Source: Moniliella sp. 'wahieum'
Lineage: Eukaryota
Direction of reading: 5' to 3'
DNA: 64,000 nucleotides
Assembly (NCBI GenBank): GCA_003971905.1
Contig: RSEE01000010.1
Coordinates: forward strand, 496,001-560,000
The position numbers were made by a program, and so were the translations under genes. Of the stretch, positions 50,957-56,493 are shown piece by piece. The first letter of the stretch is position 1; every line of letters starts with the position of its first letter. The notes under the pieces were generated by a model, which worked only from the letters and a program-made list of their open reading frames with translations, was not told where the DNA came from and ran no database searches.

Positions 50957-53408
50957 ATGTCCGACATTGACTTTGACTCGGACTACGACGACCATGGCGC
51001 GCGCGTGGCCGACATCTTCTCCTTTATGATCCATTCGCAGGGCATGGGCCCACCCTCGGCTCCGCGCATCCCCATGCCCCCGCCTGGCTTCTTCCCTCCC
51101 CCTGGCGTGCCCTTTATCATGGGTGGCGGCGTCCTGCGCCGTAGCGAGCGTGACGAAGCCGAGGACGACCCGCCCGGATTTGACTTCTTGGATGATGAGG
51201 ACGAAGGCGCAGAACGCCCCTATTATCCTATCTTTGATGACGTTGAGTATGAACAGAGTGAACCGGAAGATGACGACGACTTTCACCGCCGGTATGCCAC
51301 GTTCGGACCGCACTTTATGGGTGCGGGCTGGGACTTTGTTCCCGACGAGCCAGTGCGCCCGATGCCCCCCCGGGTCACCCGGCCCCTGCCGGCCGGCGTG
51401 CATGCGCGCTTCAATGGCGACTTTGGCAAGGTAACTATCCCTTTTTTTCTCTTGCTCGTCTGCACTTGCATGGTATTGATAAGACGCGTCTTGCGCCCAG
51501 ACTCCGCATCGCCCCCCGTGGACCAGCAACTTTTACCTAGACCTAGTGCAGGCGAATCCTGCTATCGCGCACACCTTCCCGCGTCTGTTTCCATTGATGG
51601 GCAAGACAGCATCAGGGAACCTAGATGTCGCCTCGTGGCTAAAAAAGACCCAGCCCTCCGCCAGCTCCAGGCCTTCACCGACGGCGGACTCGGGCAGATG
51701 GGATGTTGCCGATGTGATGCGCTCCTCCTTTGGTGGGCTGGGCAACCCAGCAGAGCGAGTGTATCAGGCCCGTGCTTCTTGTCCTGGAGTGGGGCAAGGC
51801 TGTGGCCGGCCTGACATGTCGACGTATGTTCCCAATGCGTTTGGGGCCGACGTGGCCATGTACCTCGGCTCGCCCTACGTGTCCCAATATTCGGCCGATG
51901 GCTCGCTGTTGGTAACGTGCACACGGGACTTTGCTGCGCACCTCTACGCGACCCAGCCGGGGTGCAGTCCGCCTCTGCACGCGTGGAATGGCAGTCGCAA
52001 AATTGAACTGTCCGAGTGGATGGACACGCATGCCCCCCGGCTGGAACGCGGCTCTCAGTTAACGTCGATGGATTTGCGCAAGACATTTGCCACATCCGAG
52101 CATTACTCCTGGACCTTGACCGACGCCGATCTGTCGGTCAAGAACGATTGGTTGATCTACAGCTCCCTGACTCCGTATGTGCATTTGGCGCCTGTTGCCC
52201 AGTATGTGCACCCGCAGGCACCGCCCGCCGACGCGTTTTCCCCCTTTGACGACGCGGATCCGCCCGAGTACTCGGCCAAAAAGTGGTCCTTGTACTCCTC
52301 GGCGGATCAGGGATCCAAACGGGCGGGCACGGAGGAGAACGACGGTGTGAACGAAGAGGTGGTGCTCAACCTCGGATCCTCTACCGACGATCCGTACACT
52401 TCGGACGGGGCGCTGTTCAGCGTCCGCTTTTCCCGCGACGGACGAGACATTGTGGCCGGGGCACGAGCGGGCCGAATCCATGTGTACGACATTGAGGCAC
52501 GAAAGAAGTCCTTCACCATCAAAGGGCACGGACGGACGTGAATACTGTCGCGTTTGCCGACCCGGCCGGCTCGCACGTTATTCTCAGTGGAGGGGACGAC
52601 CACGTGGTCAAGATCTGGGACCGACGTTCCATCCAAAACAACAAGTCGATGGGCGTACTGTATGGGCACACGGGTGGGATTACCCACGTGTCACCCAAGG
52701 GGGATGGACGATACGCTGTTTCGAACGGCAAGGACCACAATGCCAAGCTGTGGGATCTGCGGATGCTCAGCAATGACTCTGCCTCTGCTTCAACGGCCGG
52801 GACTGCGAGCGGGGGCAGGAGTCGGCCAGGCGGACTCCCGAGTGGAAAGAAGGATGGATCGGTGGTGACATACACTGGGCACACAGTTTCCCAGACCCTG
52901 ATCCGTTGCAATTTCTCGCCCATTGCGACAACAGGGTCGCGGTACATTTATTCGGGTTCGTCGGATGGCTTCATTTATGTACGTTTTTTCCCCAGGCGCC
53001 TTAACGGGTTAGTGGTGTGGTCGTGGTGTGGTCGTTGGCTGACAGGAGCATGCGGGGGAACAGATCTGGGCGTTGGATGGGCGTTTGGTCGAGACGATTG
53101 ACCGATCACAGGCGGCGACGATGCTTCCCGAAAAGTCCTTTTTGACCTCTGACCCCCGTGCGATCGATCCGTCGGGGGCGGAACGAGTGCCGCATGGCAA
53201 CCTGCGTTGCTCGGCCCATTGCGAACATCACCGGGCGGGGTGGGTGGTGGTGCGGGATGTGTCGTGGCACCCGTATGAGCCGGCGCTGATGTCGGCGACG
53301 ATCTCGCATGGCCAGCACCTGGCCAAGCACGAGTGGAAGGGCTTTGGCAAGTCGGGGCTGACGAGCCTGGAAGACTTTGCGGAGAAGACGCGGCGGGAGA
53401 CGATGTAA
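50957..53408 (+). CDS. DCAF11: WD40 protein, DCAF11/WDR23/LEC14B-like CUL4-DDB1 substrate receptor
   Basis: WTLTDADLS, FSVRFSRDG, VKIWDRRS, GHTGGITHVSPKGDGRY.VSNGKD, LWDLR, TLIRCNFSP and VRDVSWHP. Confidence 0.85.
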
Positions 53409-53881: not shown

Positions 53882-56493
53882 ATGAGCAGCACCAACCCCT
53901 TCATGCCCGCCTCGGCGCCGCCGGCGAGCAACCCCTTTGGTGCCCCGCCCACCGACGCCCCTGTCGCCGCCAATCCCAATCCATTCGCAGCGCCCCTTCC
54001 GCCGTCTGCGCCCGCCGCCCAAGGCTCCCTGGGTCCTGGCAGCAACCCATTCGCCGCCGCCCCCGCCCTCCGCCTCCCTCTCCACCGACCTGGCTGGGCT
54101 TAGCTTCGGCGCGGAGCCCCAGATGGACGTATTCACTCCCACACCGCGCCTGTACTAGCCCAACCGTCTTCCCCGCTGTCTGCCCCGTCTGGTGATGCGT
54201 TTGGCTTTGCCTCGGCTGCCGCTGCCCAGGGACAACAGGCCTTCTCGCCTCCGTCCGCTGCAGGTACCAACCCCTTTGCCCAGGCTTCTCAGCCTGAAGC
54301 AGGCAGTTCCATGTTTGCAGCGTCACCTTTTGATCTGCAGCAGTCCCAGCCCCAGCCCCAGCCGCCCGTACATACCTCGCCATTTGGAGAGGCACCTCAG
54401 CTGGATACCGCGTTGCCATTTGGTGCCTCCCCCGTGGCAGCTCCATCTCCGTTCGCCATTTCGAATCATCCGACCCCGGGGCTGGGTGCACCCCTTCCCA
54501 TCCCCGGCGTGCCCACCGCTGCACCCGAGAAGGACGAGCCGCCACCGAACGATCATGGGGTTCAGTGGGACGTGAAGAGGGTTTTGTTCCAGCAGCCTGA
54601 TGGAAGTGTAACGGACCGGCAAGTGGTCCAGCAGAACGGGCTGGGCGCTACGCCGCTCATTGCGCTGGTGAATGTCCTCCTCTTGCGCGGGGAGGTGAGC
54701 CTTACGCCTCCCAACCGACCCGCTGTGGACCATGATTACCTCTCGTCCTTGGTGGGCGAGTACTTGCTGGGCCGCGAAGATCCTACTCCCGACGCCCCCG
54801 GTTCTCTCGAGGACGCACTCAGTGTACTTCCGTACCTTTCGCGCCGTGTTACCCTCAACGCCAGCCTGACCGATGCCCGTGCTTTCCCTCCCCCTCCACC
54901 CAGCCAAACTGGCTCCGAGACTCAGGTCGCCCGCATTCACCGTGGCGTTGTCGCTCTTTTCCGCCTGGCCGGGGTGGGCTTGGTACATGGTGGCCTGCTC
55001 GATGCGACAAATCAAGCGGCCATCGACGCTCTCCGTCTTACCGCTACGGCGGATGTGGATCGCTTGAGCAGGTTTGTTGCGCAGGCCGATACGACGGCGC
55101 GGCAAGTTTCCGGTCAGGGCTTGGCGCAGCTGGCTTCCGCCTTTGCTTCTACCGCGGGCAAGGCACCCTCTGTGGTCAAGCTCAACGAGGCAGACGAACG
55201 AGCTGCTCGGGCGGCGATCGCGATGCAAACGTTTTTGAAGACACTCGATCTTGCGCCCGCCTACTTACCCGCTGCTTCTTCTACGACCGCAACCGGTTCT
55301 GCTTCGGATTCTGTGGGTGACCATGGTCTGTCCTGGGCCGCTCTGTTTGCACTGGGAGATATTGTGCGGGGCTCCTTATCAAGCCAAGCAAGTGGCCTAG
55401 CGGCGCTGTACCGCGCAGGACGGATGGACGTGATCTACGTGCCGACACAGGAGCAACTGTCCAAACACGACGCAGCTGCTGGGCACCGAGTCCGAAGGAC
55501 TTCCTGGCCTCCTCGTCCTTGCCAACCAACAGCTTTGGCGGCCGGATGACGATCCGGTTTGGCTGGGAGTAAGTGAGCCGTCGGACCCGTTGGGATCGGG
55601 TCCGGCAGGCGGTGGAAAAGGCACTGCGCTGCCCGTACCGGCGCCTGTGGCCTTTGATGGCCGTCTCCATCCGCTCCCGACAATGGAGCGACGCGCTTGG
55701 CTGCTCCGACTCAAACGCGTGGGCGTTGCTGCGCCGACGCGCGGGGCGGAAAAGCACAGTGCCGGCAGCATCGGATCAGCAACCGGGCGGCGCAAATGTA
55801 TCGATGGACCAAACGGACAGCGAGTAGGTCCTCTTCCCCCGTTGCAGATCTGGTCGTGTTGGGTGTACTAACTTTGTCCTGCTTCTTAGCTTTGCCCTTG
55901 CCCTGCATCTCCAGCAACAGGAGAACCGCCGTGCGGCACAGAGGCGCTATCACCAACGGCATCAAGCGCCGCGCGTCGCTCCTACCCCCGAGCCGATCGG
56001 GGGTATTGGGCACGAATGGTACGACCCATATGGCAATGCGGGATCGGGCGTGGACGGGGATAAGCGTGGGATGAAGGACCTGCTCCGCTTCCCCGGCTTG
56101 GGCAAGAAAAAGAAGCGCACCGATGCGGAGAAGTATGCGCCGGGCGCGCCACGCTTGTCTGTTCCCGAGCCGCGCGAGACTGTGGATGCCGGGTGGGATT
56201 CGGACAACGAGTACGCCCATGGCCATGGCTCGCGTGCACGCACGCCGAATGAGATGGCACGGGACGACTACAGTCCCCCGCCCGGCCAGGACTTTGCAGC
56301 TGGTCCGACGGATGAGGAGGTGGTTGAGATGCGGGATGGGAAAAAGGGAGGCAAGATGGGGCGGTGGATCGCCAAGGCCAAGCATGCGGTTGTAGCGGCC
56401 CTGGCTTCTCTTTCTGCCAACGCAAATGCGTACCCGCCCTGCCCTGTCTATCATTCTCTTCCTGTGCCCTGTCTATCGTTCCCTTCCCTTTGA
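53882..56493 (+). CDS. MINDY-1/2-fold protein lacking catalytic Cys/His, with N-terminal NPF repeats and a C-terminal MIU motif; intron 55824-55889; end uncertain
   Basis: QNGLGATPLIALVNVLLLRG, YLSSLVGEYLL, ALSVLP, LFRLAGVGLVHG, ALYRAGRMDVIY and DSDFALALHLQQQE. Confidence 0.78.

Follow-up and report, generated by a model that had tools for sequence, protein, structure and literature searches.

On the forward strand of the 64,000-nucleotide stretch of Moniliella sp. 'wahieum' DNA analyzed here (contig RSEE01000010.1, positions 496,001 to 560,000; hereafter the window), a gene at positions 53882-56493, consisting of two exons and a 66-nt intron between them, encodes a protein that is a member of the MINDY family by homology and by fold and in which the active site of these deubiquitinases has been dismantled. 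Since the defining catalytic features are absent, the gene product is not to be filed as a MINDY deubiquitinase. The MINDY domain is preceded by a disordered region rich in NPF (Asn-Pro-Phe) tripeptides and is followed by a helix resembling a motif interacting with ubiquitin (MIU) and by a basic-aromatic tail. We consider it probable, at roughly 0.6, that this is a catalytically dead NPF-MINDY protein that acts without catalysis as a scaffold, in a lineage that lost the active site. The observations of the original prediction, which had been made from the sequence alone, were confirmed, and its interpretation, a non-catalytic reader of ubiquitin chains that couples ubiquitinated cargo to the EH-domain endocytic network, was partly supported.

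The prediction had located a Thr codon (ACG) and an Arg codon (CGG) at the positions of the catalytic Cys and His of MINDY enzymes. Both codons are present and align with Cys137, which begins helix 1, and His319 of MINDY-1, respectively. A phmmer search against the PDB sequences placed 'QQNGLGATPL' of the window protein on 'TQSTNGPCPL' of MINDY-1, with Thr on Cys137, and a profile built from 16 orthologues aligned 'LAALYRAGRMDVIY' to 'LavLFRNSHLsVlY', with Arg on His319; the same profile picked up 'LAALYRAGRMDVIYVPTQEQ' against 'LavLFRNSHLsVlYrrreee'. A 277-nt contig from a public sequencing run (X1, introduced below) spans the Thr codon and is unchanged and collinear there, so that the Thr residue is not an artefact of an unspliced intron. 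The loss goes further than had been proposed, in that the third residue of the catalytic triad is gone as well and the domain is free of Cys. The domain and its replaced codons, all on the + strand, are these:

54554..55571, +, domain of MINDY fold (HGVQWDV ... VWLGV), carrying insertions relative to the orthologues
54650..54652, +, ACG, Thr for the catalytic Cys (MINDY-1 C137); its neighbours are changed too (N134 to L, P136 to A)
54992..54994, +, Gly for MINDY-1 W240 (HGW to HGG), part of the pocket that receives ubiquitin L73; all 69 aligned relatives carry W
55421..55423, +, CGG, Arg for the catalytic His (MINDY-1 H319; FRNSHL to YRAGRM); H in 69 of 69 aligned relatives
55518..55523, +, Leu-Ala for MINDY-1 T335-D336 (LVTD to LVLA), third triad residue and proximal-ubiquitin contact, from the read-through alignment

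Numbering of MINDY-1 was mapped onto the window protein via the phmmer PDB alignment and the orthologue alignment, and the roles of the residues are given as far as they are described in the accounts of PMC4942677 and bioRxiv 10.1101/2021.01.27.428544. Residue by residue, the comparison reads:

Q131, kept (oxyanion hole)
N134, L (Cys loop)
P136, A (Cys loop)
C137, T (catalytic)
D209, T (ubiquitin contact)
V210, L
W240, G (ubiquitin L73 pocket)
F315, Y
R316, kept
N317, A (ubiquitin contact)
H319, R (catalytic)
S321, D
T335, L (third triad residue)
D336, A (proximal-ubiquitin contact)
F339, probably Q (ubiquitin contact)

According to the published work on MINDY-1, replacement of C137 or H319 by Ala abolishes activity on its own (PMC4942677), W240 lies in the pocket for ubiquitin L73 (PMC4942677; bioRxiv 10.1101/2021.01.27.428544), and T335 positions the His via a water molecule (bioRxiv 10.1101/2021.01.27.428544). 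We compared the window protein with 69 relatives, those of 150 database hits that were chosen for their full-length appearance. At six positions the 69 relatives are invariant and the window protein differs, with P replaced by A, C by T, W by G, Q by G, G by A and H by R; 25 of the 49 columns conserved at 85% or more are kept, and these are mostly part of the hydrophobic core. The MINDY domain of the window protein contains no Cys at all. As far as the predicted sequence goes, a papain-type mechanism is excluded, since Cys residues occur only in the last 17 residues of the protein.

Among the relatives that have a residue in the Cys column of the alignment, 131 of 133 carry Cys. One exception (P0127), apparently without it, is a short protein. 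The other, a protein from Pleurotus eryngii (P0055), was considered as an independent pseudo-MINDY and rejected: it reads NGAPSLLYLKITGMAG where an 84%-identical protein of P. pulmonarius has NGPCSFIAIC, and with about 16 residues around the Cys differing, it is probably a gene-model artefact caused by a mis-called intron.

The assignment to the MINDY family, likewise proposed at the outset, was borne out by profile and by structure. The open reading frame piece at 54104-55546 matched Pfam PF04424 (MINDY_DUB) at 80.2 bits, where the cut-off is 27, and with an E-value of 2e-22, covering profile positions 2-189 of 264; the rest of the PF04424 domain lies past a break in the reading frame and aligns with the orthologues on read-through. 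In the phmmer search against the PDB sequences, 'QVVQQNGLGATPLIALVNVLLLRG' was aligned to 'PIITQSTNGPCPLLAIMNILFLQW' of MINDY-1. An AlphaFold2 model of 54530-55474, computed from a 70-row alignment and without the last strands, which lie past the frame break, reached a mean predicted local distance difference test score (pLDDT) of 85 and a predicted template modelling score (pTM) of 0.84. When this model was compared with the PDB by Foldseek, only MINDY-1, MINDY-2 and YGL082W were retrieved at E <= 0.001 (best E-value 5e-10; template modelling scores of 0.63-0.70 by target length), and the next match had an E-value of 1.8.

The gene as assembled is not one open frame. In frame 2, the orthologue profile matched it from the N-terminus as far as the centre of the MINDY domain (E-value 4.5e-43); the profile found the DLAGLSF motif solely in another frame and the MIU in a third one, and breaks lie near 54060, within 54104-54155, near 55470 and at 55750. 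These breaks had not been mentioned in the original prediction, and the gene as assembled is split over frames. From the N-terminus to the stop codon, its parts are the following:

53882..55823, +, exon 1, with the start codon, the NPF-rich disordered N-terminus, the MINDY domain and the first MIU residues; it spans the four frame breaks
53894..54277, +, five NPF motifs, with codons beginning at 53894, 53930, 53978, 54044 and 54269
54056..54066, +, frame break 1, from frame 2 into frame 0, within a run rich in C; probably an assembly indel, base imprecise, no contig cover
54087..54107, +, DLAGLSF, readable solely where two frame breaks enclose a shifted frame; counterpart of orthologue DLxGL[DNS][FLM]
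within 54104..54155, +, frame break 2 (frame 0 to frame 2), bounded by a frame-2 stop at 54101-54103 and a frame-0 stop at 54156-54158; no contig cover
54323-54454, +, SPF/LPF motifs after the NPF cluster, with codons beginning at 54323, 54377, 54413 and 54446
55462..55480, +, frame break 3, from frame 2 into frame 0, base imprecise, no contig cover
55750..55753, +, frame break 4, four A in the window versus three in the X1 and X2 contigs
55816..55923, +, MIU-like helix DSDFALALHLQQQE, interrupted by the intron and read from the joined exons
55824..55889, +, intron of 66 nt, GT..AG, with a branch-site-like TACTAAC; 55823 is joined to 55890 in one contig each of X1 and X2
55890..56493, +, exon 2, with the remaining MIU, a disordered region, the basic-aromatic tail and the stop codon (56491-56493)
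56338..56391, +, basic-aromatic tail GKKGGKMGRWIAKAKHAV, counterpart of orthologue C-termini '...GKKWWKKMF'

To inspect the gene independently of the assembly, we used contigs from two public sequencing runs of one study, X1 and X2 (shares of 0.10 and 0.07), which leave 53894-54269 and 54834-55491 uncovered. Over 276 nt, the X2 contig departs from the window only in the A-run at 55750-55753; since it has three A there, the break at 55750 is an assembly indel. The other three breaks are taken as indels because the shifted stretches hold conserved motifs (DLAGL; LLVLA...VWLGV) and introns would not fit; the frame-0 stretch 'LLVLANQQLW...VWLGV' aligns with 'LxxLVTDxxF...VWESL' of the orthologues. 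All four breaks thus look like assembly indels. Since contigs of both X1 and X2 join 55823 to 55890, the intron with its TACTAAC element, as already proposed, is genuinely spliced out.

All NPF and SPF/LPF codons share one reading frame and lie where the original prediction had placed them. Shuffling the 225-residue N-terminal part gave an expectation of 0.12 NPF motifs versus the five observed, and five or more were reached in none of 20000 shuffles. The start 'MSSTNPF' (ATG at 53882) resembles the N-termini of orthologues, e.g., 'MSTNPF'. The NPF region and the MINDY domain lie in one reading frame and form one protein in the orthologues, again in agreement with the prediction. The helix DSDFALALHLQQQE, also predicted, matches 'yalaqrLqeeer' of the orthologue profile and the motif D-x-D-[FY]-A-x-A-x-x-L-Q-x-x-E of the relatives, a comparison confined to the relatives; an MIU is a short helix with a conserved Ala/Leu core between acidic residues. 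Part by part, the layout follows that of the family: MSSTNPF, five NPF, DLAGLSF, MINDY, DSDFALALHLQQQE and ...GKMGRWIAKAKHAV.

The conceptual protein comprises 849 residues and has only two Cys, both within its last 17 residues. A C-terminal CaaX motif is absent: the frame ends in ...CLSFPSL as assembled, or in ...AKAKHAV according to the X1 sequence. Directly after 56391 the X1 relative diverges, starting with TGA, and its frame may stop there, 34 codons earlier; the window frame continues for 34 codons past 56391, and this extension holds the only two Cys of the protein. The true C-terminus may be ...GRWIAKAKHAV, and the difference after 56391 could be an assembly indel or a genuine one. When two loose-end X1 contig sequences were sought in the window, as a check for a further intron or an exon downstream, no match was obtained; the relative simply differs there.

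To place the gene among its relatives, we carried out a HMMER search of 1.84 billion representative sequences, which retrieved 171 proteins at E <= 0.001; 150 of these were listed and analyzed. The best relative had an E-value of 2.3e-22 at 38% identity, and no match fell below 1e-30. A word-based protein search with the domain found nothing at E <= 0.001 among 8000 candidates, and a scan of metagenome contigs for near relatives gave 310 pattern matches, none of them confirmed. The named closest relatives all belong to the Ustilaginomycotina (Tilletiaria anomala, Exobasidium rhododendri, Acaromyces ingoldii, Malassezia species, Ustilago (Mycosarcoma) maydis, Pseudozyma flocculosa and Violaceomyces palustris). 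NPF together with DLxGL[DNS][FLM] ahead of the MINDY domain was found in 19 of the 150 relatives, each of which keeps the Cys, and every carrier of the DLxGL[DNS][FLM] motif has NPF as well; named members are from Tilletiaria, Exobasidium, Acaromyces and Malassezia, and the majority of the members inspected possess an MIU and a CaaX or basic-aromatic tail too. At least two NPF motifs occur in 23 of the 150 proteins, and in 15 the first NPF lies no more than 12 residues from the N-terminus. The helix D-x-D-[FY]-A-x-A-x-x-L-Q-x-x-E is present at the C-terminal side in most of the first 60 relatives. A C-x-x-x end, usually after a basic run, is found in 67 of the 109 relatives longer than 330 residues, and prenylation, as in yeast Miy1, may from these endings be the rule for fungal MINDY-1/2-type proteins; an Exobasidium-like group ends in ...GKKWWKKMF or ...KWWKK[IM]F instead of CaaX. 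Two layouts occur within the Ustilaginomycotina: Ustilago, Pseudozyma and Violaceomyces have an N-terminal MINDY domain, and the remaining ones have it behind the NPF region.

Judged by these sequences, the combination of NPF, DLxGL, MINDY, MIU and a membrane-type tail is a conserved family trait and is not peculiar to the window gene, whose architecture was new to the original prediction. No paper describing an NPF-MINDY-MIU architecture turned up in the literature searched. Since all 19 relatives of the same architecture keep the Cys, the window gene would represent a lineage-specific loss of catalysis within a conserved, apparently undescribed NPF-MINDY-MIU family. Some members stand out in other respects. 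A second MIU-like motif (e.g., DAQLAQSLAA) lies just before the MINDY domain in the Malassezia-like proteins P0030, P0034, P0037, P0047 and P0059, and is missing from the window protein. A 750-residue NPF-MINDY protein filed under the fern Adiantum nelumboides (P0007) is closest to the Exobasidium and Acaromyces proteins and probably stems from a fungal associate or a contaminant in the fern assembly. The 909-residue protein of Malassezia vespertilionis named Cdb4p (P0172), whose 90% cluster combines a MINDY protein with a methionyl aminopeptidase, probably stems from a gene model in which two neighbours were fused.

Several known systems resemble the window protein in part. MINDY-1/MINDY-2 (FAM63A/B) and yeast Miy1 (YPL191C) are K48-selective cysteine deubiquitinases with MIU. 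The window protein shares with them the Pfam family and fold, a C-terminal MIU-like helix, the oxyanion Gln and a membrane theme; unlike them, it lacks the Cys, the His, the third-residue Thr, the L73-pocket Trp, the proximal-ubiquitin contacts and the CaaX motif. Its N-terminal NPF cluster is not part of the descriptions of MINDY-1/2 or Miy1, on which this comparison is based. Closer in layout are the uncharacterised NPF-DLxGL-MINDY-MIU proteins of T. anomala (K437DRAFT_273611), A. ingoldii (FA10DRAFT_301187) and E. rhododendri (CBS101457_003455), with 'M..NPF', several NPF, DLxGL, MINDY, DxDFAxAxxLQxxE and a KWWKK-type or CaaX tail; in contrast to the window protein, they keep QNxNGPC, FRNSHL, LVTD and HGW. 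Their domains are 29-32% identical to that of the window protein, which carries three insertions. The nearest precedent, Saccharomyces cerevisiae YGL082W (PDB 6k6l, deposited as 'pseudo deubiquitinase'), matches the model with an E-value of 6.4e-08; in the account of PMC4942677 it has no detectable deubiquitinase activity although its catalytic residues are kept, whereas the window protein has lost them. Epsins and Ede1/Eps15 combine disordered NPF-type or EH-network motifs with a small ubiquitin-binding element, as the window protein would; unlike them, it has no ENTH, EH or UBA domain and possesses instead an MIU-like helix and a dead protease fold, and no homology is claimed. By analogy, the window protein would work like these endocytic ubiquitin adaptors.

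Selection on the gene could be gauged from the X1 relative, which is about 97-98% alike. The comparison listed 17 differences, 11 of them synonymous. Around the dead Cys site (54521-54797) all five differences are synonymous, as are the single one in 55563-55804 and three of four in the MIU exon part; the disordered C-terminal part shows two synonymous differences out of seven and a 3-nt in-frame indel. These numbers are small, and each difference was read from one low-depth contig; the substitution pattern, thinly supported as it is, would fit a constrained domain beside a fast-evolving linker, not a pseudogene.

From these data, a history and a mode of action can be sketched. The family, shared among smut-like basidiomycetes of the Ustilaginomycotina, is built of a disordered NPF/DLxGL N-terminus, a MINDY-1/2-type domain, an MIU helix and a membrane-type tail of the CaaX or basic-aromatic kind, and relatives that keep the catalytic residues are presumably active deubiquitinases. 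In the window lineage, the active site has been dismantled and the fold-forming core kept, with the mRNA still spliced and purifying selection apparently continuing. NPF motifs are reported to bind EH domains of endocytic proteins, and those of the window protein would dock it there. The MIU is described as a small helical ubiquitin-binding motif, with the MIUs of MINDY-1 preferring K48 chains (PMC4942677), and the one found here would bind ubiquitin; the basic tail would anchor the protein at membranes. Yeast Miy1 is reported to be prenylated (farnesylated), to reside at the plasma membrane and to control Gpa1 ubiquitination (PMC11847538). For the window protein, EH binding, ubiquitin binding, a membrane or endocytic location and a role in cargo sorting would follow from its motifs, and the family would then comprise deubiquitinases of membranes and endocytic sites.

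A number of points weigh against a dead scaffold kept under selection, at least in the form originally proposed. The groove contacts of MINDY-1 are replaced (W240G, D209T, N317A, D336A and probably F339). With these ubiquitin-contact residues gone, the dead domain may not read chains, and the chain-reader role that the original prediction had assigned to it is doubtful; clamping of K48 chains, as MINDY-1 C137A does, would not be expected since the canonical S1 and S1' contacts are gone too. The domain may now be a structural or protein-binding module. The Arg codon is read from the assembly, and it and three of the four frame breaks have no independent contig cover; the contigs are short, have a depth of 2.4-3.9, come from one study and are of an unrecorded kind of run (none is on record as RNA). 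The in-domain selection argument draws on five differences. Relatives of 50%-97% identity, by which the loss might be dated, were not found in the protein, HMMER and metagenome-contig searches. A clathrin box reads L-hydrophobic-x-hydrophobic-[DE]; by this consensus, LLGLD or LVGLD of Malassezia-type relatives fit it and LAGLS of the window protein does not. In a MINDY tree of 36 domains, the end branch of the window protein measures 3.95 versus a median of 0.39. We rejected this long branch as a sign of gene-specific relaxation, for a tree of the neighbouring WD40 gene (162 columns) shows the same tenfold ratio (2.92 versus 0.28); since this gene is long-branched too, the organism as a whole is long-branched relative to the sampled taxa. 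Identity to Tilletiaria is 58% for the WD40 protein of the window and 57% for that of Malassezia, and 29% versus 52% for MINDY; this pairwise comparison with one control gene suggests extra divergence of MINDY in the window organism. Finally, paralogues were looked for within the 64-kb window, and an active paralogue elsewhere in the genome is compatible with the data.

Such a paralogue is the core of another explanation, in which the window protein would be a dead partner of an active MINDY, regulating it or competing with it for the same EH and ubiquitin ligands instead of being a free-standing adaptor. Other pseudo-deubiquitinases are known as partners of active deubiquitinases, and the loss of catalytic residues from a protein whose fold and motifs are retained fits this idea equally well; the two layouts among the Ustilaginomycotina relatives could also be read as two paralogues. 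In the tree, however, these layouts follow taxonomy, as expected for orthologues and not for old paralogues (the placement of the window protein itself being unsure), and the window holds a single MINDY region, so that we regard a regulatory partner as unlikely. The gene is probably not a decaying pseudogene either, with real frame breaks and active-site loss as a part of the decay. Four breaks within 2.6 kb, the loss of all catalytic and several ubiquitin-binding residues and a domain only 29-32% identical to the orthologues would fit decay, but the sole break covered (55750) is missing from an otherwise identical contig, the WD40 neighbour is frame-broken as well, which points to assembly indels, and the intron is removed in contigs of two runs. 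Moreover, all five differences in the MINDY stretch and 11 of the 17 overall are synonymous, the only other indel is of 3 nt and in frame, and the N-terminal NPF, DLAGL, MIU and basic tail stand in register with the orthologues; decay is therefore improbable.

Two further ideas are to be weighed against a non-catalytic scaffold. A hydrolase with an unconventional nucleophile or a rearranged active site would have a precedent, since USP53 and USP54, long annotated as pseudoenzymes, are reported to be active (PMC12037411), and the oxyanion Gln is retained. Against this stand a domain free of Cys, the Arg in place of the His, the Leu in place of the third-residue Thr and the replaced Asn and Pro of the Cys loop, in a family in which a single C137A or H319A exchange is reported to kill the activity of MINDY-1 (PMC4942677); activity of this kind is very improbable. 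The idea that something other than EH domains reads the NPF motifs, in which case the protein would not be endocytic, has little to commend it as well. NPF is read by others too: the SHD1 domain of Sla1 is reported to recognize NPFx(1,2)D (PMC2199253), and POLE2 has been described as a general NPF receptor (PMC12808100). None of the five NPF motifs has the NPFx(1,2)D form, however, and several NPF in a disordered Pro/Ala-rich region, combined with DLxGL, a ubiquitin-binding helix and a membrane tail, resemble the endocytic adaptors as they are generally known. A catalytically dead scaffold thus remains the reading that we prefer.

Upstream of the NPF-MINDY-MIU gene lies a WD40 gene:

51483..53101, +, DCAF11/WDR23/LEC14B-like WD40 gene, in the overlapping frames 51483-52541 and 52496-53101

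This neighbour had been noted in the original prediction; the gene is real, and its adjacency carries no functional weight in a eukaryote. Nothing connects it to the MINDY gene. Its split over two frames is in keeping with indel noise of the kind met in the MINDY gene. The best named relative is from Tilletiaria anomala, and as the identity is only 56-58%, the collection contains no close annotated relative of the organism. Six antisense, nearby and downstream open reading frames were tested and gave no Pfam family. The window holds one MINDY region only, and its eukaryotic DNA is GC-rich, with a guanine-plus-cytosine content of 49-66% in 2-kb bins.

A wider proposal, which we put forward tentatively, is that these proteins form an unrecognised endocytic MINDY branch of the Ustilaginomycotina, a K48-type deubiquitinase that NPF and DLxGL connect with the EH/clathrin network and a lipid or basic tail with membranes, and that the window lineage turned this enzyme into a pure ubiquitin-binding adaptor. 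Since none of the 133 relatives with a residue in the Cys column is convincingly without Cys, the window gene would offer a clear example in nature of a MINDY-1/2-type protein that lacks the triad. If true, it would be a natural experiment that parts the scaffold role of a deubiquitinase from its catalytic role, and setting the dead copy beside its active orthologues could reveal functions that depend on catalysis. The NPF-MINDY-MIU family, more broadly useful than the dead copy alone, would tie K48-type deubiquitination to the endocytic coat, a connection that can be tested and that accords with the plasma-membrane location of Miy1.

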